Part shown: positions 22,309 through 57,766 of the stretch, piece by piece
Position numbering within the stretch: the first letter of the stretch is position 1
How the letters are laid out: every line of letters begins with the position of its first letter
NCBI GenBank assembly: GCA_016219865.1
Contig: JACRKF010000021.1
Coordinates: 2,224-66,223 of the forward strand
Reading direction: 5' to 3'
Length of the DNA stretch: 64,000 bases
From: Candidatus Woesearchaeota archaeon
GTDB lineage: Archaea; Nanobdellota; Nanobdellia; Woesearchaeales; DSVV01
Position numbers and translations under genes: made by a program
The notes under the pieces: model-generated
The model's database searches: none
What the model saw: the letters and a program-made list of their open reading frames with translations, nothing else
What the model was told of the DNA's origin: nothing

Positions 22309-22339
22309 GAGAAAATTTTGCAAAAATGCAAAATTTTCT
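22309..22339. repeat. palindromic repeat, family A, copy (agaaaattttgca-aaaa-tgcaaaattttct)
   Basis: 13-bp arms. Flanked by the attgcccaactga motif shared with other copies. Confidence 0.7.
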
Positions 22340-22410
22340 TTAATCTTCAGGTAAGCAACTACCCACATTGATTATAATAGTATAGATTTAAGGTTTATTT
22401 ATAAATATTT

Positions 22411-22448
22411 AGTATTTGCGAACTCACTTCGTTCGTTCAGCAAATACT
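22411..22448. repeat. 38-nt hairpin repeat, family B (copy 2)
   Basis: agtatttgcgaactcacttcgttcgttcagcaaatact. It abuts the stop of the 22448..22774 gene. Confidence 0.7.
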
Positions 22449-22774
22449 TAAAATAACCTAATCGAAAACAAATACAAAAACGCAGCCCAAACCACTACAA
22501 TGATAACAACCTGCAATATCCAAGCAAGAAATGCGCGAAAATAACTTAAATCAAACATTATAGTATAGACAAATAAAAGAGCAAATAAAGATATAACCAA
22601 TGAATAGATGGGAGTAAAATAAATATTTATTGCAAATGTAAGAACAGCTACTATAATATTAACAATTACTACCCTTAATAATGTAGAATGTCCAGATAAC
22701 ATTTTCACAGCTAAATTTAAAGGAATTGCAGAAAGCGCAAATACTAATATTAACCAGAGCAATGTATCAATCAT
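22448..22774 (-). CDS. hypothetical small membrane protein
   Basis: 108 aa, 3-4 transmembrane helices. Confidence 0.5.
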   Translation of the reverse strand: MIDTLLWLILVFALSAIPLNLAVKMLSGHSTLLRVVIVNIIVAVLTFAINIYFTPIYSLVISLFALLFVYTIMFDLSYFRAFLAWILQVVIIVVVWAAFLYLFSIRLF

Positions 22775-22807
22775 AAATAAACAAATTATTGTTATAATAT
22801 AAATAAT

Positions 22808-23320
22808 TTATTGATTTTTTTTCTTAAAGTGAGAGATAATATCTTGCGTAAGTGATTGATGACTATAAATTAAATTATAGAATTGAGTTGCGCCTGCATT
22901 GATTGCTGCATCTTTTGCAACAAGATGCTGCCCAGAAAAACTATAAAATAAATTTGTATTATAAGAAGTTGCAAATATTGTTGTATCTTTATTTACTGAA
23001 TAAGGTTTTCTTAATTCTTCAATGAAATATTTCCCCATTTTCCAATTTTCTTTAGAATCAGATATTTCTCCAAGAATCTCATCAATTACAGGATTATTAT
23101 TATATTCTCCTGGTAAGACTGACATATTTAAAACAATTAAATTTACTTTCTCAACAAGAAGTGTGTCAAGAACAGGATAAACTGCTTCATGAAATGTTGG
23201 TCTAATTTTATGCTTTGCAAGATCTGCAACAATCTCATCTAGATTAGCATGGTCATAATCTAACCACGGAAAGAAAATAAGTCTTCGTAATTGTGGTGGA
23301 AATTTCAATACTTTTCCCAT
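22808..23320 (-). CDS. hypothetical protein
   Basis: 170 aa. Downstream of the PAC2-family gene on the same strand. Confidence 0.45.
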   Translation of the reverse strand: MGKVLKFPPQLRRLIFFPWLDYDHANLDEIVADLAKHKIRPTFHEAVYPVLDTLLVEKVNLIVLNMSVLPGEYNNNPVIDEILGEISDSKENWKMGKYFIEELRKPYSVNKDTTIFATSYNTNLFYSFSGQHLVAKDAAINAGATQFYNLIYSHQSLTQDIISHFKKKNQ

Positions 23321-23364
23321 AATGATTCCCCCAAATCGAGAGAATTTTGTAAAATTCTCTTCAA

Positions 23365-24231
23365 TTAACCAATATAATTAGCATCAGTTGATAATTGTTG
23401 TTTTAATTTATTTACAGCTGATTGTTTAGAAACTTCTTCTAATTCTTTTGTTGTTTTTAACATTTCTTCTTCCAGATCTTTAATTTCTTTATCTAATTTT
23501 TTGATATCTATTTCTAATGATAATTTCTTATTTAAAATAGTAAGAATTTCCTTAGCTCCTGCTATTCCCAATGACATAGGATGCGCAAGTGTTTCTGCAA
23601 GAAGTGTTGCTGCTGGAACTTTCTTTTTTCCAGCCATTCCTAAAAGAACACCAGATACACCAATAATAGGCCCAATAATCCCATACAATTTGTTTTTTGC
23701 AGCTGTTCCTATTACATATTTCTGGATAATCTCTTTATTATTGCCAGTGCAATAAACTTGCGGTGGATTACTTACTTCCATAAGACCAACTCCGCCAAGC
23801 GTAATTATTTCTGTGCCTTTGAATTTCAGAAGAAGATCTATAATAGCATCACAAAACTCATAGCAACTTTCTTCATCAATTGGTTGAATATCTCCTGTTA
23901 AAATAATAAGATCATTAGTCTTTCCTTTTTTTGTAAAACGTTTGTAATAAATTTCAATTGTAGGTAATTCTATAAGATTATTTTCATTAACAAATACTGA
24001 ATGAGGAAACTTATAAGAGAAGACATCATATATTTTTACAGCTTTTAATTGCTCTACAATAAAATCAGCTGTAACCTTGCCAACATTACCTATGCCAGGC
24101 ATACCTTCTATAAGAATTGGATTTTTAAGTTCTGGAATCTTTCCTATTTGAGTAAATTTCCAAGTCATTATAATCATCTCATTTAAATTGTCCAAATATA
24201 CAGATTGCCACTCAACCCGAATTACACTCAT
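23365..24231 (-). CDS. PAC2-family (proteasome assembly chaperone-like) protein
   Basis: ILIEGMPGIGNVGKVTADFIV and IILTGDIQP match the PAC2 family. It occupies the conserved position downstream of nop10. Confidence 0.7.
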   Translation of the reverse strand: MSVIRVEWQSVYLDNLNEMIIMTWKFTQIGKIPELKNPILIEGMPGIGNVGKVTADFIVEQLKAVKIYDVFSYKFPHSVFVNENNLIELPTIEIYYKRFTKKGKTNDLIILTGDIQPIDEESCYEFCDAIIDLLLKFKGTEIITLGGVGLMEVSNPPQVYCTGNNKEIIQKYVIGTAAKNKLYGIIGPIIGVSGVLLGMAGKKKVPAATLLAETLAHPMSLGIAGAKEILTILNKKLSLEIDIKKLDKEIKDLEEEMLKTTKELEEVSKQSAVNKLKQQLSTDANYIG

Positions 24232-24282
24232 GTCCGAACTGCCTAATGCTATAATTGTCTAAAAACAGCAGTTTCTGGAAAA

Positions 24283-24456
24283 TTATAAGATATTATTATC
24301 AACCAATTGCTGTTTTTTTATTTCCCTTCTATATTTTGCGTATTTATCCTCAGGAGAATATTTTGCTGGCTTCATATCAATTGCTTTTTTGCCGCAATTG
24401 CATAATTGCTTTATAGTATATGTTTTGCAGATAGGACATCGTAGTATATGTTTCAT
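24283..24456 (-). CDS. nop10: H/ACA RNP subunit Nop10 (57 aa; absent from the ORF track)
   Basis: Hand translation gives MKHILRCPICKTYTIKQLCNCGKKAIDMKPAKYSPEDKYAKYRREIKK. A CPxC...CxCG zinc ribbon plus SPEDKY..KYR matches Nop10. It directly follows aIF2alpha, as in most archaea. Confidence 0.85.
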   Translation of the reverse strand: MKHILRCPICKTYTIKQLCNCGKKAIDMKPAKYSPEDKYAKYRREIKKQQLVDNNIL

Positions 24457-24468
24457 GATAAAACCTTT

Positions 24469-25254
24469 TTATTTTGTTTCAGCGCGGATAAATTCATATT
24501 GAGAATTGATATTCTTTGTGGATTTTTTGACAATTTCGAGCATTTCTTTGATGATTGCTTCAGCTTTTTTATAGTCATCTTGTTTAACAATTATTTTGTA
24601 TATTCCAGCGCCAGCATATTTTATATCCACTGCTTTTTTCCCATATTCAGTCAATTTTTGGAATAGATGTGTGATGATCTCTAGACCATTGCTTTCATAA
24701 GTCTTAAAATGAAGATCTCCCTTGATTGTAACTTCAGGTTGCTTGATTCTTTGCTTAACTGTTTCAACAAGAATCTTTTCATATTCTTTTGGTATGTTTA
24801 ATTCTTTTACATCAACAATTTCAGCAACAATTTGCTCAAAGAATTTATGCAGATAACTATATTTTTTAAAAATAGGTGTTGCAATATGTTCATAAACTTG
24901 CCTTACATCGCGTTTTGTTGTATGCGCAACAACTTCTATAATTTTCTCTGCAATCTGCTCTAATTTCATCTCGTTTATCTTTGTTTTTCGCTGCATATCA
25001 GTTACTCTGCGCAATGATAAATCAATATGACCGCGTTCTTGATCAATTCTAAGAACCATGCAAACGACAACTTTGCCTTCTTTAATGTATTCATTGATAT
25101 TCCTAATTCTGCCAGCTGCAACTTCGCTAATATGAATCATTCCTTTAAGATCATATTCATCTATTGTTGCAAATACAGAATGATATTGAATCTTTGTAAT
25201 AGTGCACATCACTATTTCATATTCTTGAGGTAAATCTTTCTTTCTATAGAACAT
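24469..25254 (-). CDS. eif2a: translation initiation factor aIF2 alpha subunit
   Basis: An S1 domain (EYEIVMCTI...GMIHISEV) and a central helical domain are present. The ORF-track start is TTG; ATG at 25254. Confidence 0.9.
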   Translation of the reverse strand: MFYRKKDLPQEYEIVMCTITKIQYHSVFATIDEYDLKGMIHISEVAAGRIRNINEYIKEGKVVVCMVLRIDQERGHIDLSLRRVTDMQRKTKINEMKLEQIAEKIIEVVAHTTKRDVRQVYEHIATPIFKKYSYLHKFFEQIVAEIVDVKELNIPKEYEKILVETVKQRIKQPEVTIKGDLHFKTYESNGLEIITHLFQKLTEYGKKAVDIKYAGAGIYKIIVKQDDYKKAEAIIKEMLEIVKKSTKNINSQYEFIRAETK

Positions 25255-25267
25255 TATTTTTACTCCT

Positions 25268-25453
25268 TTATTCAAGCACTTCTAATACTCGTGCTTTTAT
25301 CTTTGATTTTCCGCCTGTTGGTTCTACTAAAACCTTTTCACATACTAAGCATTTCACCATTGTTGCGCTTTTTCCAAATGTAATCTGCTCATTTTTACAT
25401 TTAGGACATCGTATTTTTACAAATTTACTGTTTGGTTCACGTACTAATAACAT
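25268..25453 (-). CDS. rps27e: 30S ribosomal protein S27e
   Basis: CPKCKNEQ...CLVCEKVL is the C4 zinc finger of S27e. 61 aa. Confidence 0.85.
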   Translation of the reverse strand: MLLVREPNSKFVKIRCPKCKNEQITFGKSATMVKCLVCEKVLVEPTGGKSKIKARVLEVLE

Positions 25454-25508
25454 ATTCTTAACCTCCTAACAATATAGTATAAGAATAAGAGGTGATATAA
25501 AAAGTTAT

Positions 25509-25546
25509 AGTATTTGCGAACTCGCTTCGCTCGTTCAGCAAATACT
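25509..25546. repeat. 38-nt hairpin repeat, family B (copy 3)
   Basis: agtatttgcgaactcgcttcgctcgttcagcaaatact, about 30 bp downstream of the MutS-like gene end. Confidence 0.7.
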
Positions 25547-25577
25547 ATAATCAGGCAATTCGGAATAAAGATAAAAT

Positions 25578-27515
25578 CTAGCGTATCCTGCTTTTAGCAG
25601 CCTGAAACACATGCTCAGGGAGAACACTTTGAACTGAGATGATACCATAATGCAGACCAATTGCTTCTGCTGGCGCTTCTTGCTTTGTATAACTAAATCC
25701 ATTGCCATTAGAACTCAAAGGAAATAAAGAAACTTGTACTGATGAATTTACCCCTAAGTCTCTAAGATTAGGAAAATGTGTTGGAAGAATTGCGCGAACA
25801 CCTTTATTGAGAAAAGTGTTTTCTGCAATTGCATATAAGATTGCTGCGCCGTCATCTGCTCTTGTTGCAGTTCCCTATTCATCTAATACCACAAGACAAT
25901 ACGATTCACAACCTGTAATCTGCTCATACAGCTCTTTGATTGCTTGTTTTTCAGCAGCAAAACTGCTTTTAATATTTGTTCCTACTTGCCTATGCCTTAC
26001 AAATATTCTTTCATGGATTGAGATTGTAGCAGAACTTGCTGGGACATATAATCCAGCCTGCGCAAAATTCACAAGTATTGCAGCCATATCAGCATAGATT
26101 GACTTTCCTGCTTCATTTGGACCTTCAACTATCTCAACAAGAGTATCGTGATTAAGATAGACGCTATTTGGCATTGGTTTGGAAACATGAAGGAAAGGAT
26201 TTAGGCCATTTTCAATATTGATTATCCTTTCTTCTTTTGGAACAATTGTAGACCTTACCCTTTTTTTTTCTTTAAAAAATTTTGCTAATCCTGCATACAA
26301 AGCAATCTCTTTTTCAATTTTTTTAAAAGAAGTTGTAATATATCTAAATTTCTCGAGGGAATTACGTTCCCCAAATAGATGATATAACTCTTTAGCATCT
26401 TTTGGATCTGCTGCTATAATCTCTTGCAACTTCTTTTTTAATGAAGAAATTCCTTTCTCTTCATTCTTCATTATATGATCCACAGCTCTCTGTATACGAC
26501 CAAGTTGCGGAACATCAGCATCAGTAAGATCTGGAAATGAGATGCTTTCCAGATTTTGAACAACATTTTTTACATTTTTCATAAATTGTTCATAACAAAA
26601 TTGAGCAACATCTTTAGCTTCTTCTGGATCAAAGAGATAGGTTCCACCATCTCTTGATTGGATATTACCCATCCTATGACCATGTTTAGAATGTTTATTC
26701 ATAAATCCTATCCCTGCTTTTCCTTTATAGCACTGAAATAGATCCATGACAGACCAAAGAAGAGCTTTCATAGTAGAATCGAGAGAGATGCAATCATTTT
26801 TTGTCAAAGATTTTAAAAGATCGTCATTAACCATAAAATAATTGATTGCGTCAGTTCGTTGAGCAATAAGATTTCTGTCAGTCAATGGATTAAGCACCCA
26901 ATCAGCAAGTTGAGGTTTGTCTAGATCATATCCTGAAAATAATGCATTAAGCAATCGTGGAGTTGGTTTTTCCATAGTAAAGAAATAACCAAATGTCTTT
27001 TCTGTATCACCACCATAAAGCGCATTATAACTTTCATGATCAAGAACTGCACTATGTAAAAAACTAAGCGAATCATCTTTAGGTAAACTCCCTTTTACTA
27101 ATTGAGGATGCTTTGTATATGATAGATCAATCTCATCAACAAGAACAACAATATTGCCATATTTAACAGAATCCATATTAATTTTAGGCGCAATCACTAT
27201 ATCTGCAGATTCAAGACGAGCTTTGTATCTTTTTGGATCAAGAGAAAACTTTTCAAGAGGAATACTGGACATCCTCATTTTTGTTTGAACAAGAGCCTTG
27301 TAAAGAGAAAGTGCTTCCTTTATATGAACAGGGATATGATCATCACGACGTGAATCATACTTTCCATAATTAAGAGAATCGAGATCATGTTTCCCATTAA
27401 CTTTTGAAGCAATAGTCCCTACAAAAACTGCGCTTAGATTATGATGCAATTCACTCCTTAACTCAAGAATTTTAGCTCCAGTTTCTAATGTTTGTATTTC
27501 CTCTTCAAGCGTCAT
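25578..27515 (-). pseudogene. MutS-family ATPase (domain V) interrupted by an in-frame TAG at 25875-25877; read-through would give about 645 aa
   Basis: Walker A GPNEAGKS. The sequence reads ...SYCLVVLDE-[TAG]-GTATRADDGAAILYAIAE...THF, which matches MutS LLDE-I-GRGTSTyDG...TH. No MutS domain I (GDFYELF) is present. Confidence 0.7.
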
Positions 27516-29137: not shown

Positions 29138-29222
29138 AGAGTAAGAATAATCTTGTGGATTATAAAGATTTTTAATCTGATAATTCTTCTACTAAACACT
29201 CTCTGCCAAAATTGCCCAACAT

Positions 29223-29262
29223 GGAGAATTTTGCAAGAATTGTTATTCTTGTAAAATTCTCC
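29223..29262. repeat. palindromic repeat, family A, copy (ggagaattttgcaagaat-tgtt-attcttgtaaaattctcc)
   Basis: 18-bp arms with one mismatch. It abuts the mutL stop codon. Confidence 0.7.
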
Positions 29263-30960
29263 TTACTCTTTCCTCTTAAACTTCTTCTCAAGTTCATACA
29301 ATGAATAATGTATTATTGCTGGACGTCCATGCGGGCAAGTGAATTTATTTTCGCATTGAAACAATTCTTCCAGAATTCTATAGATCTCTGGAAATTCTAA
29401 TACATCATGCGCTTTTACTGCGCTTCTGCAAGCTGCTCGTGCTATTCTCTCCTCCTTAATTTCCTCAATTTTCACCGTTTCGCCAAGATTTAATTCATCA
29501 ATAACATCATAGATTAATTGTTTCTGTTGTGTTCTTCCAAAAACAGAAGGTAATGAGCGAAGCAGATAACTATCATTACCAAATAACTCAAGATTAAACC
29601 CAGTGCTTTGCAGCAATTCAATATTCTGCTCTATAATAACGCGTTCATTTGGTGTTACATGCAACACAATTGGTGTTAATAATTGCTGCGCATGTATATG
29701 CTTATCTTTGCATTCTTGCAAGAATTTCTCATACATAACTCTTTCATGCGCTGCATGCTGATCAATCAGAAGCATTCCTTTTTCATCTTCTGCAATGATA
29801 AATGTATTATGTATCTTTCCAATTAATCGTATATTCAACACTTGTTTTAAAGGTAATAAAGACGGCGCTTGCGTGAATGCAGTTTGATATTCAATAAACT
29901 GCCCTGCTGAGGACAATATAAGTTTTGCATCAATCTCTTTTGGTCTTGATTCAATCACTTCCGGAATCAAATTTTCTTCAACTAAGCAATCGATAACTGC
30001 TTTCTTTATTGCTTCATAGATTAAATATTCTTTATCAACTCTGACAATTGATTTTGAAGGATGCACATTAACATCAACTTTCTGCGGCAGAATAGTTATA
30101 TTTAAAATAAAGATCGGATGCCTTCCATGAAACAAGAAAGTGCCATAACCATCATAAACAGCTTTGTTAAGAACATAATTTTTAATATACCTTTTATTAA
30201 TGTACAAGCTTTGATATTCTTTATCTGTCCTTGCTGCATTTGGCTTGCCGATATAACCATTAATCTCAACATCGCCATTTGCAAAGTTAACAGCCAGAAA
30301 CTCTTTTGTTAAATCTCTGCCATATATTGTTATAATATTATTCAGCAGATCTGTTGTAGACGGTGAATTAATAATTGTCTTCCCATTATGCGTCAACAGA
30401 AAATGCATCTCTGGATGGATTAATGCATAACGAGTAATGATATCAATAATATGATTAAATTCCACTGCAATTCCTTTCAGATGTTTTTTTCGCGCAGGAA
30501 CATTGTAAAAAAGATCAGAAACAGCAATCATTGTGCCTTGTTTTGCGCTGACATATTCCTGCTTTAAAACAATGCCATTTTCAACTGTTATTGAAACACC
30601 AACATCATTTTCTTTTGTTTTTGTTATCATTTCAAGCTTAGCAATTGAAGCAATACTTGCTAATGCTTCTCCTCGAAATCCAAGAGTTGTAATCTGAAAC
30701 AAATCCTGAAGATTATTTAATTTTGATGTAGTATGGCGCTGTATACTCATCACAACATCATCTTTCTCAATACCTGATCCATTGTCACTCACTTTAACAA
30801 GAGATTTCCCGCCTTCAATAACTTCAATGGAAATATGTGTTGCTTCTGCATCAATTGCATTCTCAACCAATTCTTTTACAACAGAAGCAGGTCTTTCAAT
30901 AACTTCTCCAGCTGCAATCTTATTTATTAAATCTTTATCAAGTTCTTTTATTTTACTCAT
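29263..30960 (-). CDS. mutL: DNA mismatch repair protein MutL (with endonuclease motif)
   Basis: GHKL motifs ELVENAIDA, DNGSGI and GFRGEAL are present. The C-terminal DQHAAHERVMYEKF is the DQHAxxExxxxE nicking motif. Confidence 0.9.
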   Translation of the reverse strand: MSKIKELDKDLINKIAAGEVIERPASVVKELVENAIDAEATHISIEVIEGGKSLVKVSDNGSGIEKDDVVMSIQRHTTSKLNNLQDLFQITTLGFRGEALASIASIAKLEMITKTKENDVGVSITVENGIVLKQEYVSAKQGTMIAVSDLFYNVPARKKHLKGIAVEFNHIIDIITRYALIHPEMHFLLTHNGKTIINSPSTTDLLNNIITIYGRDLTKEFLAVNFANGDVEINGYIGKPNAARTDKEYQSLYINKRYIKNYVLNKAVYDGYGTFLFHGRHPIFILNITILPQKVDVNVHPSKSIVRVDKEYLIYEAIKKAVIDCLVEENLIPEVIESRPKEIDAKLILSSAGQFIEYQTAFTQAPSLLPLKQVLNIRLIGKIHNTFIIAEDEKGMLLIDQHAAHERVMYEKFLQECKDKHIHAQQLLTPIVLHVTPNERVIIEQNIELLQSTGFNLELFGNDSYLLRSLPSVFGRTQQKQLIYDVIDELNLGETVKIEEIKEERIARAACRSAVKAHDVLEFPEIYRILEELFQCENKFTCPHGRPAIIHYSLYELEKKFKRKE

Positions 30961-30990: not shown

Positions 30991-32379
30991 TTAATTGTGA
31001 TTTAATACCTGATTCAGATTATGGTTGCCTTTATCACTAATACCATATCTTTCTCTAACAATTCTTTCTTCTCTATCAGTTAAGCGAGATAATAGTTGTT
31101 TTAATCTAAAACTATCATCTTTTACAAGAGCAGAATCATCAGCTGAAACTGATGCTGTATTCTCAAGCACATCATAATAAGTCATTTCTTTTCCTGTACC
31201 AACGGCATCATCAAGTGAAGTAAGTGTTAATCGTTTTTTGTATTCATCATATGTTTTTTCATCAAGATACTTCCTTTTGCCTGTTATTTCCATCTCATAC
31301 TCTAAATCTTCAAAAGTTCTATGCTTTCTTTCTATCTCTCTATAAGTTGCTGCAAATTTCTCTTGCGCATGCACAGGAGTGCGTATAGTCTTATTCTGAT
31401 CTATAATTGCGCGAGTTACTGCTTGCTTTATCCACCATGTTGCATATGTTGAAAATTTATATCCTCTCTGCCCATCAAATTTTTCTACTGATTTCATTAA
31501 TCCAGTATTTCCTTCTTGAATTAAATCAGAAAGAGTCATATTGTCCAATAAATGAGTGTATTTCTTCGCAATTGAAACAACAAGACGAAGATTTGCATTA
31601 ACAAATTTATTGCGAAGTGAGAAATATTCTCTAAGATCTCTGCCTATGGAAATAAGATCCTCCTTGTAAGCATTATGTATTCTAAATGCTCTTGCATTCC
31701 CAGCTAAAGAATCACCTAATTTATTTTCATAAAACTCCATATAATGACAAGCTGCTGCCTTAAACAAAGAATATGAATTAAAATAAAATGAAGGATCAAC
31801 ACCAAAATCAATGATCTCTTTAAGAAATTCTTTTCCATACTCTACTTTTCTAGCAACAGATGGAATTATTCTGCCATATTTCAACCTTTTTTCACCCAAT
31901 ACCGGGATAATTTCTAAATAAAAGCTTTCAACTGCTTTACGCATTTGATCATATACATTACCATCTTTTTCTACCTCGCCTTTATCAGTTACTTGTTCTT
32001 CATCTTCATTACTTTCTTGAATATAACCCTGTTGTTCAGCATCGCCATTATCAACTTTCTGTTTAGAAATTGCATAAGCAACTCTTTTCTCTAAACGAAA
32101 AACTTTTAACAATGGTTGAAGAACATATTCTGGATTTATACCATAAACTTTTCCGATAAAAGAACTTCTCACTTCACGAAGTCTTTGGGAAAGATTAATT
32201 TCTTCATCTCTTGTTAGTAATTTAATTGCGCCCATACTTTTCATATAAGTAGAACAAGAATCTGAATCAATAAGTTCAGAACCATTAGGCCGAGAATCAC
32301 CTGGAATATAAATACCCTCTGCATAATCATCTAATCCTAATGCATGAATTCTATTCTCCAACCCCACAATCTCTTCCAT
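30991..32379 (-). CDS. bacterial-type sigma-70 family protein (regions 1.2, 2, 3, 4.1), apparently lacking the region 4.2 recognition helix
   Basis: Region 2 [11 protein letters not shown]...[41 protein letters not shown] is nearly identical to the RpoD consensus. Region 1.2 ([16 protein letters not shown]) and region 4.1 ([15 protein letters not shown]) are present. The ORF ends right after NLNQV. Confidence 0.8.
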
Positions 32380-33902: not shown

Positions 33903-34415
33903 TTACCAACTTCCACTTAAAGTATATCCATTAAGTATATTATGGAGAAGTTCTTTGTTTGTTACATTCTCCATCCTATGAAATTGCATTACTTGTATTT
34001 CTCTTTTTAGAATTTTTTCATATTTTTTTAGATCTAGTTTCTTATCAGTTGGTGTAAAAACAGCAATATCTATATCTGAATCTGATCTTGCCTCTGCTTT
34101 TGATAACGAACCAAAAAGTATAATGACTGGATTTAGCAGTTCATTTTCGAAATAATCAAGCATTCCTGATTTTTCAAGAATAGATCTCCAATAGAGCCTT
34201 GATAAATCAATAAAGAACTGAGAGTCTTTATTTGCATAATAATATATATACAATTTATCTACTTCCTTTTTTAAGATTTTCTCGATAAAGAAAGTATCAA
34301 GAAGTTTAGATGCTGTTGGTGGACTTATCTTTTGCATTCTTGCATATTCTCTGACATTGATTCTCCTATAATTATCTTCCATAAACGATTTCAATCTGTT
34401 AATTATTTCTAACAT
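33903..34415 (-). CDS. minimal nucleotidyltransferase (MNT) with an N-terminal wHTH
   Basis: GSLSKAEARSDSDIDIAVF matches the GS-x9-DxD nucleotidyltransferase motif. Confidence 0.75.
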   Translation of the reverse strand: MLEIINRLKSFMEDNYRRINVREYARMQKISPPTASKLLDTFFIEKILKKEVDKLYIYYYANKDSQFFIDLSRLYWRSILEKSGMLDYFENELLNPVIILFGSLSKAEARSDSDIDIAVFTPTDKKLDLKKYEKILKREIQVMQFHRMENVTNKELLHNILNGYTLSGSW

Positions 34416-36537: not shown

Positions 36538-37176
36538 ATGATAACCAAAAAAAGAAAGGTTTATATAGTTCCAACCCATAACTATAGTTATATGGAGAAT
36601 CCGCATAGTTTCAAAACAATACAGTTGTTATATAATGAAACCGCAGAAAAAAGAATATTAAGAAGACTTTTTCTTGATCCTAATAAAGAGTTTAGTTTAT
36701 CTGATCTTGCAACGCAGTCTTCTATGCGAAAAGAAAACATTGGAAAGATTTTAAAACATTTTGAAAAGAATGATTTGATCACAATAGCAAGACTGAAAAC
36801 AATTTGGCAGATACGTGCAAACCAGCAAAATAGCTTATTTATAAGAATGAAGATAGTCCATAATTTGCAGAACATTTACAATTCAGGTTTAGTTGACTTT
36901 CTGAATGAATATTACAACAATCCAAAAGCAATTGTCCTCTTTGGAAGTTATAGGAAAGGTGAAGATATTTCAACATCAGACATTGATATTGCAGTCGAGG
37001 ATGATTCAATTAAAGAATATAAGATACTTGAATTAAAAGAACTGAAAGAAATAGAAAAACATCTGCAAAGAAAAATACAGGTTCATTTATTCAATAGAGC
37101 AGATATAAACAAGAATGTATTCAGCAATATTGCCAATGGCATTGTGTTATTTGGTTTTTTAGAGGTTAATCTATGA
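36538..37176 (+). CDS. nucleotidyltransferase (MNT) with an N-terminal wHTH
   Basis: LFGSYRKGEDISTSDIDIAV. 4-bp overlap with the next gene. Confidence 0.7.
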   Translation: MITKKRKVYIVPTHNYSYMENPHSFKTIQLLYNETAEKRILRRLFLDPNKEFSLSDLATQSSMRKENIGKILKHFEKNDLITIARLKTIWQIRANQQNSLFIRMKIVHNLQNIYNSGLVDFLNEYYNNPKAIVLFGSYRKGEDISTSDIDIAVEDDSIKEYKILELKELKEIEKHLQRKIQVHLFNRADINKNVFSNIANGIVLFGFLEVNL

Positions 37177-38476: not shown

Positions 38477-38544
38477 TCTTTTTTGAATTCTTTAGTTATT
38501 TATTAATTTTCTGCAAGATTTCCCCTGCTCGAATTGCCTGGCTA

Positions 38545-38573
38545 GGAGAATTTTGCACTTTTGCAAAATTCTC
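38545..38573. repeat. palindromic repeat, family A, copy (ggagaattttgca-cttt-tgcaaaattctc)
   Basis: Left flank cgaattgcctggctag resembles the flank of the 43120 copy. It lies inside a doubtful 78-aa ORF (38496..38732). Confidence 0.7.
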
Positions 38574-38755
38574 TTGATTATCTTCTTTTACCTTCTTTCG
38601 TAGTTCTATGTACTTTTTCCATTCTAAATAAACATCATCATTGCTTTTTGATTTATTTTCATCATGGATGCATTGTTCTTGATTTTCATTGTTGAATTGT
38701 TCTTCTTGATTGATATCTTCCACAATAATCACACTCTTATCTTAGTTTAACATTA

Positions 38756-42530: not shown

Positions 42531-43769
42531 ATGAACGAAGTGAATACGAAAATACTTAAGATCAACAAAACACCCTGGCATTCATGGTGCACTGGAAAGA
42601 TTTCAAAAGGCTGCGCATATTGTGTGCAAGGAAGAAAGTTAGTGTTATTTATCACAGGATTATGCCCGCAAAGATGTTTTTATTGCCCTGTAGGAGAACA
42701 AAAGTTTGGCAATGATGTTGTATATGCTAATGAATGGAAATTAGAAGATCCGAACAATCCTGTTGAATTAATAAAAGAAGCAGAACTAACGCAAGCAAAA
42801 GGCGCTGGAATTACTGGCGGAGATCCATTGATGAATATTAAGAGATGCTGCAATTATATCCAATTATTAAAAAAAAAGTTTGGAAAAGAATTTCATATTC
42901 ATTTATACACGCCATTGAAATTAGTAACAAAAGAAAGATTACAAAAACTATCTGCTGCTGGACTTGATGAGATAAGGTTTCACCCTGATTTAGATGATAA
43001 TTCTTTATGGAACAGGATTAAAATTGCAAAAAAGTACAGATGGGAAATTGGTATAGAGATTCCAGCAATTCCCGGATATGAAAAAAAAACAATGAGACTG
43101 ATTGATTACATTATTTTTGCAGACTCCCTATTGCCCGAATTGCCTAATGAGGAGAATTTTGCATTTTTGCAAAATTCTCCAAACAAAGTATCATTCATCA
43201 ATCTTAATGAACTTGAACTTTCAGATACTGAAACAAAACATTATACATTGCCAACAAAAGGGTTTAAGGCAAAAGATAATATTAGTTATGGTGTAAAAGG
43301 AAGCAAAGAGATGGCAATAAAAATGCTGGAATATGCTAAAGAAAAAGGATTATCTGCGCATTTTTGCACTGCAAGACTAAAAGATGGTATACAAGTCAAG
43401 AAAAGATTACAAATTAGAGCAGAAAACATTAAATTACTATTTGATGAAAAAACAGAAGATGGAACATTACTGCGCTGCTGCATATACCTCCCAGAACTTG
43501 CGCCAGGAATGAATTATAGAGAAAAACTAAGAAACGCTGATAAAAATGATTTTATTGAAAAACTAACAGTTATTCGCAATAAATTATTAGAAACTTTAAC
43601 ATTAAGTGAAAAAGAAATAGTTATTGATTCAAACAAATGCAGATTAATCATTCCAAGAAGTGTTGCAAAACAATATGCAAATAAAATAAAGAAATATAAT
43701 TTACTTCCAGCATTAGTTGAAGAATATCCTACTCAAGATGGATTTGAGGTTGAGATTGAATTTTTGTAA
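42531..43769 (+). CDS. radical SAM domain protein
   Basis: The CPQRCFYC (Cx3Cx2C) motif is preceded by a CAYC motif. The gene contains an in-frame copy of the family A repeat at 43120-43180. Confidence 0.7.
   Translation: MNEVNTKILKINKTPWHSWCTGKISKGCAYCVQGRKLVLFITGLCPQRCFYCPVGEQKFGNDVVYANEWKLEDPNNPVELIKEAELTQAKGAGITGGDPLMNIKRCCNYIQLLKKKFGKEFHIHLYTPLKLVTKERLQKLSAAGLDEIRFHPDLDDNSLWNRIKIAKKYRWEIGIEIPAIPGYEKKTMRLIDYIIFADSLLPELPNEENFAFLQNSPNKVSFINLNELELSDTETKHYTLPTKGFKAKDNISYGVKGSKEMAIKMLEYAKEKGLSAHFCTARLKDGIQVKKRLQIRAENIKLLFDEKTEDGTLLRCCIYLPELAPGMNYREKLRNADKNDFIEKLTVIRNKLLETLTLSEKEIVIDSNKCRLIIPRSVAKQYANKIKKYNLLPALVEEYPTQDGFEVEIEFL
43120..43180. repeat. palindromic repeat, family A, copy inside a coding sequence (ggagaattttgca-tttt-tgcaaaattctcc, plus the conserved left flank cagactccctattgcccgaattgcctaatga)
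   Basis: It is read in frame as ...DSLLPELPNEENFAFLQNSPNK... within the radical SAM protein. Confidence 0.7.
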
Positions 43770-46708: not shown

Positions 46709-47467
46709 ATGGACACTGATATATTACGGAAAATAGGCTTAACTGAGAATGAGATTAAAATATATCTCAATTTACTCAAAACAGGTTTAAGTACAGCATA
46801 CGATATTGGCAAGAAAACTGGAATCTATCGAGTACACGTTTATGATAAACTTGAACAACTAATGGATAAAGGCTTAGTTACTCATGTATATAAGGGAGCT
46901 AAGAAATATTTCCAAGCCACCCATCCTAGTAAAATCAAACATTATCTTGAAGATCAAAAAAGAGTGTTAGAAGTGCAAGAGCAAGCAGTAGATTCTATTC
47001 TGCCTGAATTAGAGGCTATGACTAAAATTTCTAAAGAAGACACTTTTGTAGAAGTCTTTAAAGGAAATGAGGGATTAAAATATTTTCTTAAAGATATTAT
47101 TAAAACAAAAAAAGAAGTATTAATAACTGGAATTGATGATCAAAAATATCAAGAGGCGCTTCCCATATTTATGAAACAATATTTTCGAGATCTTCGCAAT
47201 AACAATATTAACGAGAGAGTTATAACTTTAAAGAAATTAGGTGTTTTCTTATTCGAGAAAGAACTAGCCCCAACTACGCATTATAGATTTTTAGAAGATA
47301 AACAATTTAATCCCACTAATACTTTTGTATATGGCAATAAAGTGGTTATTGTTGCATGGGGAACTCCTGTCATGGCTGTTATGATAAAAAATAAAACCAT
47401 TGCCAAAACGTACCAAAATCATTTTGAACATTTATGGAATGCCGCATCAAAAAAAGTAAAACTATGA
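46709..47467 (+). CDS. TrmB-family transcriptional regulator
   Basis: The N-terminal wHTH LTENEIKIYLNLLKTGLSTAYDIGKKTGIYRVHVYDKLEQLMDKGLV is typical of TrmB. Confidence 0.75.
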   Translation: MDTDILRKIGLTENEIKIYLNLLKTGLSTAYDIGKKTGIYRVHVYDKLEQLMDKGLVTHVYKGAKKYFQATHPSKIKHYLEDQKRVLEVQEQAVDSILPELEAMTKISKEDTFVEVFKGNEGLKYFLKDIIKTKKEVLITGIDDQKYQEALPIFMKQYFRDLRNNNINERVITLKKLGVFLFEKELAPTTHYRFLEDKQFNPTNTFVYGNKVVIVAWGTPVMAVMIKNKTIAKTYQNHFEHLWNAASKKVKL

Positions 47468-49318: not shown

Positions 49319-49348
49319 AGAGAATTTTTCTTCTCAGAAAAATTCTCT
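49319..49348. repeat. palindromic repeat, family A, variant copy (agagaatttttc-ttctca-gaaaaattctct)
   Basis: 12-bp arms sharing the GAGAATTTT/AAAATTCTC ends. It lies in the divergent promoter region between the RNase and psd. Confidence 0.55.
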
Positions 49349-53073: not shown

Positions 53074-53101
53074 TGCCCAACACCCATTTATTTAAATTTT
53101 T

Positions 53102-54298
53102 TTAATGTTTAGCGCTTTCTTCCAACGCAATCAATGCAGGCAATTTTTCTCCTGAGAATAATGCTAATGCTGCCCCGCCTGCTGTTGATAAAAGAGTAAT
53201 CTTATCTGCAATACCTAATTTCTCTAATGCTGCGCTGCTATCACCGCCGCCTATAATGACTGTTGCATCTAATGTTGACAGATATTGAGCTATTTTCTTT
53301 GTTCCTTGTGAAAATTGTTCAATCTCATATACTCCTAACGGTCCATTCCATAAAACAGTTTTCGCTGTTGATAGATGCGCAATAAAATTATCAGTTGTCT
53401 TCTTACCAATGTCTAAAGCCAACATTTTCTCAGGAATCTTTGTGCAATCAACTGATTGAGATTTTGCTGTTGCATCTATTTTATCTGCAATTACAACATC
53501 AATAGGCAGGATAATCTTATTTTTGTATTGTTCTAATAACTTTCGCGCTTCTTCTAATTGTGAAGCATCAACAACAGAATTGCCTACTTCATAACCAAGC
53601 ACTTTGTAGAAAGTAAATATCATTGCTCCTGCTAAAAGGACTTTGTCAACTTTTGGCAGGATATATCTTATTACTGGAATCTTTGTTTCTAACTTAATGC
53701 CGCCAATAATTGCAACAAAAGGATGTTTTGGATTGTTTAAAGCAGCAGTAATTGTACTAACTTCTTTTTCAAGATGCAATCCAGCAGATGATGATAAGAA
53801 CAATGGCAAAACTGACATTGAAGCTGAATCTCTATGAGAAACTGAAAAAGCTTCATTAACATATACATCAGCATTTGCTGCTATTCTCTGCGCAAAAGAA
53901 TATCTTATATTCTTATCATCAGATTCTTCCTCCGAGTAAAATCGTACATTCTCTAAAAGAATTATTTCTCCCTGCTTCATTGCAGAGATTTGTTTTTCAA
54001 CTATCTTTCCTATGCAATCATCTAGTTTTTTTACAGGTTTGTTCAATAAACAAGATAATTCTTTCGCAACAGCATCGCAACGTAATTTCTCAACTGCTTT
54101 TCCTTTTGGTCTTCCAAGATGTGTGAGAAGAATAATCTTTGCTTTTTTTTTCAGAAGATATTGTATTGTTGGCAATGATTCTTTAATTCTTGAATTATCA
54201 ACAACATTTCCTTTATCATCTAATGGAACATCATAGCCAACTCTGACAAGAACTCGTTTATTAGTTACATCCATCTTTTTTAGTGTGCAAAATTTCAT
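53102..54298 (-). CDS. pgk: phosphoglycerate kinase
   Basis: KRVLVRVGYDVPLD at the N-terminus, and a C-terminal GGGDS...AGG-type motif. The true start may be the internal ATG at 54274. Confidence 0.9.
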   Translation of the reverse strand: MKFCTLKKMDVTNKRVLVRVGYDVPLDDKGNVVDNSRIKESLPTIQYLLKKKAKIILLTHLGRPKGKAVEKLRCDAVAKELSCLLNKPVKKLDDCIGKIVEKQISAMKQGEIILLENVRFYSEEESDDKNIRYSFAQRIAANADVYVNEAFSVSHRDSASMSVLPLFLSSSAGLHLEKEVSTITAALNNPKHPFVAIIGGIKLETKIPVIRYILPKVDKVLLAGAMIFTFYKVLGYEVGNSVVDASQLEEARKLLEQYKNKIILPIDVVIADKIDATAKSQSVDCTKIPEKMLALDIGKKTTDNFIAHLSTAKTVLWNGPLGVYEIEQFSQGTKKIAQYLSTLDATVIIGGGDSSAALEKLGIADKITLLSTAGGAALALFSGEKLPALIALEESAKH

Positions 54299-54413
54299 TT
54301 CATCACTCTTTTCTTCGCAAAAATAAGTTGCAAAAGGATATAAGTCATAAAAAATGACTCAATAACAAAAAAAGATTTAAAAATTGTAAAAAATCTTTGA
54401 TTTTTTACAATTT

Positions 54414-54869
54414 TTATTCAATTAATAATCTTACCTTATCAGGATCATATATCCAATCACTTGCTAATCTTTCTGTAGCTTTATAATACTTTACAATACG
54501 CTTAATCTTTGATTCAGTCAATTGCAAACCTCGTTTTGCTACCATGTCCTTTTTATTTTGCTCTAAATGCTTTTTTAACATAATACTATTCTTAATTAAC
54601 GCAAGCAAATCTTCAGGTAATGCGCCTTGTAATTTCTTTTCATCTAAGAATTGCGTTATGCTTTTATTTAACAACACTCTTACACTAGGAACACCATAAG
54701 TATCTCTTAAGATAATTCCTATTTGTGAAGGAGTATTTTTTTCTTTTGCAAGCTTTACAATAAGCATCTCAACTTCTTTTGGTTTATACCTAACCCAGCT
54801 TGGAATTGTTTTTTTCTGAGGTCTTTTTGAACCTGATTTTCCATGTTTTCCTGAATACATTCTTCCCAT
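54414..54869 (-). CDS. rps15: 30S ribosomal protein S15 (S13e)
   Basis: MGRMYSGKHGKSGSKRP...IPSWV matches archaeal S15/S13e. Confidence 0.9.
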   Translation of the reverse strand: MGRMYSGKHGKSGSKRPQKKTIPSWVRYKPKEVEMLIVKLAKEKNTPSQIGIILRDTYGVPSVRVLLNKSITQFLDEKKLQGALPEDLLALIKNSIMLKKHLEQNKKDMVAKRGLQLTESKIKRIVKYYKATERLASDWIYDPDKVRLLIE

Positions 54870-55078
54870 ATTTTTTTCCTCCGTAAAAAAAATAAAAATA
54901 GGTTATATTTTTATTCTTTAAATTGAGATTTAGGAGAATAAGATTTCTTATTCTTCAAAATTGTTCATGAAGTGAACAATTTTGTTCTTTATCTCCAGTA
55001 TAAGCAAGCCTAGACAAGCTTATCTCTCGAATGAGAATAAGAATAATTGTTGGTTTATAAAGTTTTTGTGAAATAAAA

Positions 55079-55225
55079 TAGCCCCGCTCGGATTCGAACC
55101 GAGGTCTTCGGATTTCTGTATCAGATGCTATATCAAAGACATCTAATTCCAAAGTCCGAAATGATTGGCCACTACACTCCGCAAAATCTTTCTCAGTTAT
55201 CTTGAAAAGACTCTTCTACGGGGCT
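55079..55225 (-). tRNA. tRNA-Gln(UUG) candidate, about 147 nt, apparently containing two introns
   Basis: On the minus strand there is a 7-bp acceptor stem (AGCCCCG/CGGGGCU) and a perfect T-arm CUCGG-UUCGAAU-CCGAG. The anticodon stem UCGGA/UCCGA flanks CUUUGG|about 35-nt insert|A, consistent with a canonical 37/38 intron. A second insert of about 36 nt lies between U8/A9 and a D-arm-like GUAGUGGCCAAUC. No encoded CCA. Confidence 0.7.
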
Positions 55226-55299
55226 ATCCAATCATTTCCGAGCCAAGCTATTGCTAGTGAGAAAATTAGTGGTATTTAAATTTAACTACAAGAAAACGC

Positions 55300-56055
55300 T
55301 TATTCCCACATTTTCAACGCTTCTTCTTCCATAAAATGCATTTTCGCTGGTATTATCAAACAATGCAGAGCTTTGCCAAAATCAACAGAAAGCAGTTCTT
55401 TCACAGTTCCAACTTTAATAAGATTATCACTTCCAATACGAGCGCAGCCAATCGCAAGCGTTTTCTCATTGATAACTTTCTGCTTTTTTTTCTGCTCAAT
55501 CTCTAACAGATATTCTAATGCTTGATTCACAGTCATATATTTATTCTCTTCTGGTTTCAAATCAAGCAAGAACAATGTATGCATTCCATTCTTTTTGTTA
55601 ATTTTTAGTACATCATAGCAGGTTTCTGGTTTAAAATTATCCTGTGGAAATGGTATAGATGTTGTTTTGCCAAATTTATATAACTGCAACCCAACAATGC
55701 CGATTGCTGTAAGAATTGAAGTATTATGGATAACAATACATTCTATTTTTTCCTTTTTTGCGCGAAGCAAAATATCAATATGCGTTGTTGCAGACATTGG
55801 ATCTCCAACAACAAGCAATGCAACATTCTTCTTCTTTGCTTCTTCAATTATCTTGTTTTGTTCTTGTTCAACATCAATTCTTTTTGCTAAAACTATTTTT
55901 CGACCATAAAATTTCTCCAGATCTAATTGTGAACACTGCAACAAAGAAGTATAACTTTCTAAATAAACAACATCTGCTTTTTTAACTGCTTCTAAACCTT
56001 TTACAGTTATATCTTTTTCATTGCCTAATCCTAAACCGACTATTGTTAATACCAT
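55300..56055 (-). CDS. dph5: diphthine synthase
   Basis: MVLTIVGLGLG...VVYLE tetrapyrrole-methylase fold. The ORF-track start is TTG; ATG at 56055. Confidence 0.85.
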   Translation of the reverse strand: MVLTIVGLGLGNEKDITVKGLEAVKKADVVYLESYTSLLQCSQLDLEKFYGRKIVLAKRIDVEQEQNKIIEEAKKKNVALLVVGDPMSATTHIDILLRAKKEKIECIVIHNTSILTAIGIVGLQLYKFGKTTSIPFPQDNFKPETCYDVLKINKKNGMHTLFLLDLKPEENKYMTVNQALEYLLEIEQKKKQKVINEKTLAIGCARIGSDNLIKVGTVKELLSVDFGKALHCLIIPAKMHFMEEEALKMWE

Positions 56056-56260
56056 TATCAAAAGAAAAGAAAATAACTATATAAATGTGCTTGATGAAAA
56101 AAAATTTGCAGAGCAAAATTTTTTATATAAAAAGAAAAAAAGATCCCTGCAAGGGACCAAAAAGTGCCTTCATCGTTTTCTAAAGTGTTGGGGGTGAAAA
56201 GAGATGAAGGCAAGAAAATAGTTGCCTAAAGACATATTGGGGTATTATGAAGTGAAGTAT

Positions 56261-57373
56261 TTATCTCAATACTTCAATACCTAATTCGTCGTTAATCTCA
56301 TGAAATTCAGCTCTTTGTTTTGAAACATTTGCTGATATTCTGTCAGATTTTCCAACAATCCATGGTGATTTAACTCCTGTAACAATTGTCATGACAGTTA
56401 GTTTTCCTTTCATATCTTCACTAACTCTTGCTCCCCAGATACAGTTTGCATCATCATCCATTGTTTCTGTTACAAGTTCACCAACTTTGTTGATTTCTTC
56501 TAATGTTAAGTCAGGACCACCTGAAATGTGGATTAAAGCTCCTGTTGCTCCTTCATAGCTAATATCTAATAATGGATTGCTTAATGCTCCTTTAACTGCT
56601 TCATCTACTCTATTATTTGTATCAGAAGCTCCTACTCCAATAGCAGCAACACCGCCATTTGTCATAATTGCTTTTACATCAGCAAAGTCTAAGTTTACTA
56701 ATGATGGAATTGCGATTGTTTCAACAATTCCTTTAATCATTGTTGATACTAATTCATTAGCAACTGCAAATGCTTGTTGTATCGGCAAATTTCCAGCAAT
56801 TTGCACTAATCGATTATTATCAATTACAATAACAGTATCTGTTACTTCTCGTAATTGCTGCAATCCAAATTCAGCTTTATCAACTCTTGCTCTTTCTATT
56901 TTGAATGGCATTGTTACAGTACCAATTACAATAGAACCAGTATCTTTTGCAACTTGCGCAACAATTGGAGCTGAACCTGTGCCAGTTCCTCCACCCATTC
57001 CTGCGCAAACAAAAACCATATCTGAACCTTTTAGTACTTCTTTTATTTCTTGTATTGATTCTTGCGCTGATTCAGCTCCTTTTTGAGGAAATCCTCCACA
57101 GCCCAATCCTCTAGTAATATCACGTCCAATTAAGAACTTTTTATCAGCTTCTGTAATATCAAGATGCTGTTTATCTGTGTTACATGCAATAATTTCTGCG
57201 CCCTTTACTCCTTTTCTATACAGCCAATTGACCATATTATTTCCTGCGCCGCCGCAGCCAATTACCTTAATATTTGCCTGACCAACAACAATGTCAGAAT
57301 AGTCGTTAGAACCCATTGTATTTTTTGATGCAAAATCCATACTATACCCCTCCCCTTTTTTGTCTTTACCCAT
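56261..57373 (-). CDS. ftsZ: cell division GTPase FtsZ
   Basis: [12 protein letters not shown] and GGGTGTG tubulin signature motifs. Confidence 0.9.
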
Positions 57374-57740
57374 TTTTAGTACTTATTTAAGTACTTGATT
57401 AATAAATAGATACTAAAAACTATATATTGCTTAATATAGTTAACACTACAAAAATGTTTATATAGTAGTATATTCATTAATCTTCTTAGAATTCAGATTC
57501 GACACATACGCCAATATGTTTTCGAATACGCCAATTATTAAATGATACAAACGCCAATTGAATTGAGTTTCGCCAAAAACTTAATTTCAATTAATTTTTA
57601 TTTCATTTCTAATGAGTTAACTTATATTTAAAGATTTCTATTGTAAAAACTATATATTAATTTTAAATATCCGATTTCTCGACGAGAAAAAGAAGAAAAA
57701 TTTGAAAGAAAAAGGTAATGAAAAAGAAAAGAATTTGATT

Positions 57741-57766
57741 GGAGAATTTTGCTTTGCAAAATTCTC
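57741..57766. repeat. palindromic repeat, family A, copy (ggagaattttgc-ttt-gcaaaattctc)
   Basis: It lies in the divergent region between ftsZ and an MNT gene. Confidence 0.65.

Follow-up and report, generated by a model that had tools for sequence, protein, structure and literature searches.

A family of tail-plus-hairpin repeats, probably mobile, in a Woesearchaeota genome of the DPANN archaea

What are the conserved palindromes that lie between, and in one case within, the genes of a Candidatus Woesearchaeota archaeon, a member of the DPANN archaea, whose genomes are tiny and gene-dense and in which any repeat is costly? We analyzed a 64 kb stretch of this genome, hereafter called the window, and surveyed the copies of the home genome within it. 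An initial annotation had listed six palindromes with conserved arms and variable loops, and had suggested that they represent an operator bound by a protein, an RNA hairpin or a family of MITEs (miniature transposable elements bearing inverted repeats) with transposase-recognized ends. Our results suggest that the palindromes probably belong, as the hairpin module, to a family of mobile elements that are small, non-coding and non-autonomous and that resemble repetitive extragenic palindromic sequences (REPs) and MITEs. The mobile part of the last suggestion was supported by insertion polymorphism; neither the operator nor, in detail, the transposase-recognized ends in the classical MITE sense were supported. 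This one window shows filled and empty sites, a copy in frame within a gene, and a strong preference for junctions at stop codons.

All six palindromes (beginning at 22309, 29223, 38545, 43151, 49319 and 57741) were recovered, and they stood far above chance. The pattern GAGAATTTTGCA-N(3-6)-TGCAAAATTCTC was matched exactly at two places, 38546-38573 and 43152-43179, and 100 dinucleotide shuffles gave an expectation of 0. A scan for consensus-like hairpins, in which an arm had to resemble the consensus at 7/11 positions or more and to be paired at 10/11 or more, returned 14 in the window as compared with 0-2 (mean ~0.7) in 20 shuffles. Single arms with two or fewer mismatches occurred 41 times, 23 being expected, and the surplus consisted of paired arms. 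Since the paired arms accounted for this surplus and single arms outside hairpins were not enriched, the idea that the arms serve as DNA uptake sequences was rejected. When folded as single-stranded DNA, the copies gave energies of -10 to -15.6 kcal/mol with z-scores from -4.2 to -7.7. The copy at 29223 was also found in an independent Logan assembly of SRR12113407, which was 100% identical over 8.6 kb. The tally for the 64 kb is eight clear copies and two to three weaker relatives, and dozens more exist in related DPANN genomes.

The conserved unit is asymmetric and extends well beyond the palindrome. The 5' flank said to be shared by several copies is real and is longer than had been noted, following the pattern TG[TC][CT]N[GA]NATT[GA]C[CA] at 5-8 nt before the hairpin, with sites at 5131, 22291, 29204, 38526 and 43132 and a further one at 63151 beside a decayed hairpin. 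A full unit of ~55-70 nt consists of a leader of ~10 nt (A-ATCCNTT), this conserved unpaired motif (TGYCCGAATTGCC, 13 nt; hereafter the tail), a spacer of 5-8 nt that is frequently rich in stop codons, and a hairpin of ~25-40 bases, which in these composite copies has a perfect stem of 12-18 bp and a free loop; the conserved stretch ahead of the hairpin usually measures 25-30 bases. Five composites of 60-70 nt with a hairpin, all on the + strand, are present in the window, and hairpin-only copies exist beside them. The stems come in two sizes, of 11-13 bp with a loop of 3-6 nt and of 17-18 bp with a loop of 4-6 nt. When 14 copies, taken from the window and a related genome, RIF32 (GCA_018303075.1), were aligned, conservation began ~30 nt before the hairpin and ceased at its end. 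The arms are conserved while the loops vary.

From these copies RNAalifold predicted the hairpin alone, with no second structure in the tail. At five of the 12 stem pairs both bases were changed in some copies with the pair kept, which supports the proposed selection on pairing. A search with the tail motif gave 20 matches in ~164 kb from the window, RIF32 and other relatives, of which 14 had a strong hairpin 5-8 nt further on and one had a decayed hairpin; the remaining five were chance matches, four of them in two orthologous coding sequences. Neither the alignment nor this search revealed an inverted copy of the tail. A covariance model scored the five window composites at 60-74 bits and the hairpin-only copies at 21-33 bits, and the elements had no match in Rfam at the gathering score or at E<=1. 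The stem contains no stop codon in any frame, which explains why open reading frames (ORFs) read through it.

We compared the window chiefly with RIF32, whose MutL is 87% identical and which is syntenic over 21.7 kb, and with the close relative L090, whose FtsZ is 97% identical to that of the window. The small unit is polymorphic for presence or absence at orthologous sites for four copies (29223, 38545, 43151 and 63156). In the first of these, a long-stem composite at 29194-29263 (+ strand; 63.7 bits), the tail TGCCAAAATTGCC at 29204-29216 precedes an 18-bp hairpin at 29223-29262 whose stem, at 29224-29261, includes one G-T pair. As the initial annotation had it, this hairpin abuts mutL, beginning 1 nt past the TAA; the element is missing at the syntenic RIF32 site, and the MutL C-termini are identical in both genomes. 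The composite at 38516-38575 (+ strand; 71.1 bits), with the tail TGCTCGAATTGCC at 38526-38538 and its hairpin at 38545-38574, is likewise missing from RIF32. It replaced the stop codon of a small ORF on the - strand, which now reads ENFAKVQNS through the hairpin.

The third polymorphic copy, at 43122-43181 (+ strand; 73.7 bits), has the tail TGCCCGAATTGCC at 43132-43144 and its hairpin at 43151-43180, and lies, as had been claimed, inside a coding sequence (CDS), that of a radical-SAM protein at 42531-43769. The protein has 412 aa and its relatives mostly 373-399 aa. A 22-residue insertion, IFADSLLPELPNEENFAFLQNS, was found only in the window protein and was absent from 15 of 15 aligned homologues, one of them ~80% identical. 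The insertion lies at ~43110-43175 and comprises 66 nt, or 22 codons, in frame, and a DNA alignment with the contig of the closest homologue gave an empty site that differs by exactly 66 nt. In the AlphaFold model of the protein (mean pLDDT 84), residues 200-217, which belong to the insertion, have a pLDDT <50 and are placed between a helix and a strand.

The two sites regarded earlier as degenerate relatives, 5119-5189 and 63156-63185, do belong to the family. One is a complete composite at 5121-5190 (+ strand; 60.4 bits), with the full tail TGTCAGAATTGCC at 5131-5143 and a diverged but perfectly paired 17-bp hairpin at 5150-5189 (-11.7 kcal/mol, z -5.6), situated between two + strand genes (4183-5103 and 5203-5988). 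The other, at 63141-63185 (+ strand; 21.9 bits), retains the tail TGTCTGGATTACC at 63151-63163, has lost its hairpin and gives no fold; this remnant segment of ~45 nt is missing from L090. The fifth composite, at 22281-22340 (+ strand; 65.9 bits) upstream of the L15e gene, is an old copy common to the window and RIF32. Its tail TGTTCGGATTGCC at 22291-22303 is followed by the hairpin GAGAAAATTTTGCA/TGCAAAATTTTCT at 22309-22339, in whose stem (GAAAATTTTGC/GCAAAATTTTC, 22311-22338) the third pair is compensated, and the RIF32 site keeps a tail-like AGATTACCAATAACT with a decayed hairpin. Over the region syntenic to the RIF32 locus L087, the window has four family hairpins and RIF32 has one and one decayed copy.

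The position of the copies with respect to genes was surveyed with crude ORF calls in the window and in 36 hairpin-bearing DPANN loci. Across these loci the hairpins lay between tandem genes (28), convergent genes (10) or divergent genes (4), and five were inside ORFs. Of the 38 hairpins with an adjacent gene 3' end, 22 were 5 nt or less from the stop codon, compared with 4.5 expected for random placement within the same intergenic spaces (binomial p ~1e-11), and a start codon was within this distance for only one of 32. The stem's first G or GA completes the stop codon (TA|G, T|GA) in about half of the hairpins that abut one, and the six composites that do so all have the hairpin, rather than the tail, on the side of the stop. 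Since the repeats supply stop codons and some ORFs read through them, annotators have here a reason for odd ORF ends. Orientation is also biased: the family tails in the window are on the + strand in six of six cases, with neighboring genes on either strand, and RIF32 copies share their orientation within each contig (3/3, 2/2 and 2/2). GC skew is negative over nearly the entire window, and tails on one strand together with this skew would fit a replication-linked, strand-specific insertion, as in the IS200/IS605 family (PMC6006769).

The motif beside the hairpin, the need for pairing, the lack of an evident target-site duplication (TSD), the strand bias, and the post-stop and in-frame sites together favor a processing of the hairpin as single-stranded DNA. 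The movement that we favor, by analogy, would be that of a folded single strand acted on by an enzyme in trans: such an enzyme, encoded elsewhere in the genome, would recognize the hairpin in its folded form, along with the unpaired motif next to it, and make the copies, much as HUH/Y1 enzymes (RAYT, IS200/IS605 TnpA) recognize REPs and insertion sequence (IS) ends. The uniform orientation of the composites would then reflect insertion on one replication strand, and the transcript of the gene upstream would include an inserted hairpin in its 3' end. The tail and hairpin together provide a defined substrate with which the moving enzyme could be identified.

How well do other explanations account for the same observations? 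The hairpins could function in RNA, a post-stop hairpin being a 3'-end element (for termination, for protection from 3' exonucleases or for slowing the terminating ribosome) and mobility serving to spread useful modules. This role, which bacterial REPs are thought to have (PMC3733652), agrees with the 22 of 38 hairpins next to stop codons, the hairpin always being on the gene side, with the compensatory changes that keep the pairing, and with the perfect state in the window of the 22309 hairpin at an old site common to RIF32. It fits less well with the occurrence of copies in both orientations with respect to transcription (transcription reads the tail first in those at 5121 and 43122, and three copies with only a hairpin are upstream of genes), with the copy inside a CDS, and with the lack of a consistent T-run after the hairpin; moreover, the RIF32 orthologue of 22309 has decayed and most orthologous genes in relatives have no hairpin. 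We therefore regard an RNA function as a possible, though on balance unlikely, explanation of the family, and one that, from the sequence, could coexist with mobility. Far less probable, and not supported by our results, is an operator, that is, a double-stranded dyad bound by a dimeric regulator such as the AsnC/Lrp-type or TrmB-type proteins encoded in the window at 16572-17144, 46709-47467 and 58716-59690. The promoter placement that had been noted is real, in that the hairpin-only copies at 23340, 49319 and 57741 lie 20-75 nt upstream of start codons, and the stem sequence, beyond its pairing, is conserved across distant genomes. However, the majority of copies touch stop codons rather than promoters, one is within a CDS, the loop of short-stem copies ranges from 0 to 6 nt so that the spacing of the half-sites varies, copies are gained and lost between close relatives beside unrelated housekeeping genes, and the same stem recurs in genomes with at most ~50% protein identity. 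In addition, both half-sites change together with pairing kept, and such co-variation would not preserve the base contacts of a protein.

Two further explanations also involve movement of DNA. If the element were a minimal classical MITE, its arms would be the terminal inverted repeats of an IS, set directly against each other, and a DDE transposase that generates TSDs would move them. Arms of 11-13 bp in which the outer end is conserved (GAGAAT...ATTCTC) and the center varies are in keeping with this, as are short flanking direct repeats at some copies (e.g. TAAA...TAAA at L005, L055 and L063) and a report that a Woesearchaeal genome is among the MITE-densest in archaea (PMC11602168). The conserved tail is, however, one-sided, so the arms do not bound the moved unit; the flanking repeats are inconsistent, in flanks that are AT-rich anyway, and a transposase gene bounded by family arms was not seen in ~700 kb of loci. 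We consider this explanation improbable, and the earlier claim of ends recognized by a transposase fails in detail, the unit having a tail and one hairpin with neither an established TSD nor a transposase found. About equally improbable is that the palindromes are recombination sites for small gene cassettes (integron attC-like, or the attachment sites of a site-specific recombinase) and the dispersed copies are scars or secondary sites. Three hairpins do lie at the edges of strain-specific insertions (22819-23362, 57702-58703 and ~61168-61700), and a RIF32 hairpin is exactly at a synteny break. Against these stand the absence of an integrase or tyrosine recombinase among the window ORFs scanned with Pfam (60 of the 69), the lack of attC core sites (RYYYAAC/GTTRRRY) in the hairpins, the absence of cassette arrays, and the five composites that were inserted without cargo.

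Several points weigh against a mobile, REP/MITE-like family. The copy number per genome is extrapolated from 64 kb. The junction in the radical-SAM gene is ambiguous, with a possible 5-nt CAGAC/CAAAC repeat and an extra 6-nt indel (ATTTTT); the four filled/empty comparisons did not establish a fixed target or a TSD, the other junctions being too diverged, and the sequences 5' of the insertion points differ between copies. The absence of intergenic copies in relatives could reflect precise loss rather than gain. The orientation argument is based on few copies, and a tail attached to a second hairpin type lies on the opposite strand. The three hairpin-only copies upstream of start codons are at the edges of inserted genes and could hint at a further role. 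REPs are normally species-specific (PMC6006769), and the sharing of identical stems by very distant genomes is unusual for them. The same 60 ORFs contained no transposase, HUH/Y1 protein or RAYT, the HUH...Y motif of Y1 enzymes was absent from the ~700 kb of related loci scanned for it, and clustering of 2,559 ORFs (80 loci) all against all identified no protein family that travels together with the hairpin. The ORFs between hairpin pairs are housekeeping genes. A viral origin was also looked for: IMG/VR gave 0 matches, and plasmids gave only three partial matches of 19-20 nt, to Macrococcus plasmids. In the JGI metagenomes the tail-plus-hairpin pattern was found at five loci, all duplicates of the RIF32 genome, and a literature search by sequence string returned only primers and unrelated matches.

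Among known systems, the mobile family proposed here is most readily set beside the REPs and REPINs that are moved by RAYTs (TnpA-REP, HUH-Y1). Bacterial REPs are mainly downstream of ORFs, with a TAG stop codon that often comes from their GTAG ends, and are sometimes found in frame within genes (PMC3733652; PMC6006769). The two share a near-perfect hairpin of 20-40 nt with a conserved unpaired motif nearby, many dispersed, non-coding copies that lie for the most part downstream of genes, the frequent provision of the stop codon by their ends, an occasional copy in frame within a gene, and compensated pairing. Of the features by which REPs are recognized, the family shows dispersed, stable palindromes and a mainly extragenic, downstream placement and lacks the tetranucleotide tag, for where REPs have GT[AG]G or CGTC at the foot of the stem, here the 13-nt tail is found 5-8 nt away. 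The bases at the hairpin foot vary, with CGTC directly abutting the stem only in two copies (L057 and L062) from the Candidate Phyla Radiation (CPR). It also differs in its archaeal host, its AT-rich stems, the sharing of one stem by very distant genomes, the absence of inverted doublets (REPINs) among the copies seen, and the absence of a RAYT from the loci scanned. REPs and their enzymes have been treated as bacterial (PMC3733652, PMC6006769), and a bulk census of MITEs that gave ~105 MITEs per Mb for a Woesearchaeal genome did not describe the families (PMC11602168). The present family is an archaeal counterpart of the bacterial REP/MITE repeats and a well-documented case from DPANN. It shows that DPANN genomes are actively remodelled by miniature elements, which also mark the borders of several strain-specific insertions.

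The IS200/IS605 family, which occurs in Archaea (PMC6006769), and the palindrome-associated transposable elements (PATEs) also have a subterminal hairpin with an unpaired recognition or cleavage sequence nearby, no obvious TSD and a strand-biased orientation. They differ in having distinct left and right hairpins and in inserting 3' of a tetra- or pentanucleotide that is fixed; each unit here has one hairpin only, a fixed target was not identified, and neither TnpA nor TnpB was found in the loci scanned. Classical MITEs are similarly small, non-coding, multi-copy, mostly intergenic and polymorphic for insertion, yet their bounding terminal inverted repeats are not matched by a conserved unit that extends ~30 nt beyond one arm only, and neither TSDs nor a parent IS was found. 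Integron attC sites are likewise palindromes that act as folded single-stranded DNA and sometimes lie beside toxin-antitoxin or nucleotidyltransferase accessory genes, but the R''/R' core sites, extrahelical bases, integrase and cassette array are absent here, the stems are perfect, and most copies are without cargo beside housekeeping genes. The Rickettsia palindromic elements of Ogata et al., in a symbiont with a reduced genome, are reportedly 100-150 nt long and in many cases intragenic and in frame. Like these, the 43151 copy is an in-frame palindromic insertion in a protein-coding gene, tolerated as an extra surface segment, in this case of 22 low-confidence residues. The family described here is shorter (55-70 nt) and has only 1 of about 10 window copies in a conserved gene.

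To determine how widely the hairpin occurs, 185,579 species genomes were scanned for exact matches to GAGAATTTTGC-N(1-8)-GCAAAATTCTC, which gave 79 loci. About 45 of these came from seven DPANN genomes, with many loci per genome and flanks that were lineage-specific. The tails differed by genome, being GGCAATTCGGAC in the window and RIF32, GAKAACTTTGCATCGT...CGTCGAGC in nzgw46 and gw1851, and CAGCGTGGGGNGGGG in H51, so that the 11-bp stem GAGAATTTTGC/GCAAAATTCTC is joined to at least three unrelated tails across DPANN genomes. These carriers (Woesearchaeota and Nanoarchaeota) are distant from one another, with a beta-CASP protein that is ~50% or ~29% identical to that of the window and a GC content of 30-47%. 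Approximately 10 bacterial matches were singletons, several of which resembled ordinary terminators, and ~19 loci from Treponema/Spirochaetaceae (rumen Treponema) occurred in clusters of other hairpins. Abutment to stop codons was absent from all bacterial groups among the scan loci. In four CPR copies the hairpin is at the apex of GTCATTGCGAG...GCAATCC palindromes, with GGATTRCC motifs like the window tail. Homology between the tail of the window and the CPR copies is weakly supported, as the covariance model scores the latter at ~36 bits, barely above the hairpin-only copies (27-33 bits).

An apparent Lachnospiraceae family was rejected because all eight of its loci are one orthologous intergenic region. 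In the eight species concerned (L015, L024, L034, L035, L037, L038, L073 and L077) this region contains a variable array of hairpins with GAGAATT...AATTCTC outer stems and differing inner stems. In a Treponema locus (L069:1132-1422) there is a tandem array with a period of 133 bp, in which the exact hairpin lies between GTCGAC..GTCGAT and GGCGAC..GTCGCC hairpins.

The chance level of identity across phyla is an estimate only. It is doubtful that the 11-bp stem is an independent sequence-specific module exchanged between lineages and even between domains. If it were, a conserved hairpin-recognizing enzyme or horizontally moving hairpins would link ultra-small archaeal and bacterial genomes, and a combinatorial swapping of tails and hairpins, as at 25509-25574 (see below), would be a way for small elements to evolve that has not been described for REPs. 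Likewise, if the recurrence of the stem in distant DPANN and CPR genomes is not due to chance, horizontal exchange between DPANN and CPR becomes testable.

The remaining copies in the window are hairpin-only or weaker, and several are associated with inserted genes. An additional, loop-less copy, GAGAATTTTGTAAAATTCTC, was found at 23340-23359 (21.2 bits), which folds more weakly than the others (-6.3 kcal/mol, z -3.4). It is 20 nt upstream of a 170-aa ORF (22808-23320) and at the edge of a strain-specific 544-nt segment (22819-23362) missing from RIF32; the ORF had no family match. The hairpin-only copy at 57741-57766 (33 bits), with an 11-bp stem and a TTT loop, is 74 nt upstream of an NTP_transf_2 (Polbeta) nucleotidyltransferase gene at 57840-58433, and both are within a segment of 1002 nt (57702-58703) absent from three relatives (L090, L091 and L092). 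This segment is flanked by a direct repeat of ~12 nt, GAAGWAAAATT (GAAGAAAAATTT / GAAGTAAAATTC), the right copy of which resembles a stem arm; the empty site in L090 reads GTGAAAAAATCT. A possible relative, AAGAATTTTGAAAAA-N14-TTTTTCAAAATTCTT at 61171-61214 (29.6 bits), includes the 3' end of a ParE toxin gene (61204-61458), with its last codons and stop codon; this gene, with a putative antitoxin gene, forms an insertion at ~61168-61700 relative to L090, in which two copies of another repeat, GCAGCAGAGYTGCGGRGTATT, are found instead. The RIF32 hairpin at the synteny break, AAGAATTTTGCAAGGCAAAATTCTT (L087:1557-1581), is upstream of a P-type ATPase gene. Hairpins at segment edges and at this break suggest that the family hairpins may also mark places where DNA is gained or rearranged. 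None of these three hairpin-only or weaker copies has an assigned strand, nor does the hairpin-only copy at 49319-49348 (28.3 bits; z -7.7), which is located between divergent genes, 41 nt upstream of a phosphatidylserine decarboxylase gene, and has a compensated stem, GAGAATTTTTCT/AGAAAAATTCTC, its arms at 49320-49347 being GAGAATTTTTC/GAAAAATTCTC, also compensated. A weaker, less certain relative is found at 56099-56123.

At 25509-25574 (- strand; 20.1 bits) the tail of the family, with its spacer (TTCCGAATTGCC TGATTAT), is attached to a different hairpin, AGTATTTGC-N20-GCAAATACT, and this joining shows that tail and hairpin are exchangeable modules. The hairpin belongs to a second palindromic family, with a loop containing a CGAGCGAAGCGAG-like sequence, found at 18503-18540, 22411-22448 and 25509-25546 and at L007:3443-3522. 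The copies at 18.5 kb and 22.4 kb are missing from the syntenic RIF32 sites, a homologous copy being present elsewhere in RIF32, and the latter abuts the stop codon of the ORF at 22448-22774. A 104-nt insertion relative to RIF32, at 24182-24288 between Nop10-like and PAC2 genes, contains three tail-like motifs (TGTCCAAAT.., CCCGAATTAC and TGTCCGAACTGCC) and no hairpin of the first family; it also extends the PAC2 ORF, as called, at the N-terminus.

Other palindromes were noted in the window. A perfect 16-bp hairpin, TTAATTTTTTTGCTTT/AAAGCAAAAAAATTAA, is located between convergent genes at 63206-63241 and occupies the same position in L090 and L091, where changes in the outer stem are compensated. 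Rather than belonging to the mobile family, this hairpin may be a conserved structure of 3' ends. Two more long palindromes, perfect or nearly so, were found at 7410-7466 (26 bp, 5-nt gap) and at 3896-3945 (24 bp, 2-nt gap), the latter overlapping the start codon of a tRNA (m2,2G) methyltransferase gene.

The window has a GC content of ~32% along its entire length, and 41 of its 69 ORFs are on the - strand. Pfam identified archaeal housekeeping genes, including those for ribosomal L15e, PAC2, eIF2-alpha, RtcB/archease, FtsZ, CDP-archaeol synthase and S15. ARAGORN found no tRNA genes in the window; a sub-threshold tRNA match at 55085-55181 on the - strand (27.1 bits, the gathering score being 29), which spans 97 nt, could be an intron-containing archaeal tRNA. 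An ORF of 462 aa at 30991-32379, between mutL and a PLD-like gene, has Sigma-70 region 2 and region 1.2 domains in this archaeal genome and is conserved in RIF32 as a 474-aa protein that has region 4 as well. The ORF lies in a group of adjoining genes of bacterial type (mutS-like, MBL, methyltransferase, mutL, sigma and PLD). The MutS-like ORF of this group (25875-27515) stops within domain V (profile positions 2-85 of 188) and appears to be truncated; together with a neighboring 2-kb segment it is missing from the syntenic RIF32 site. An AbiEi/AbiEii-type toxin-antitoxin pair at 8491-10058 and three nucleotidyltransferase genes (33903-34415, 36538-37176 and the gene at 57840-58433 described above) show how rich the window is in accessory modules of small size.

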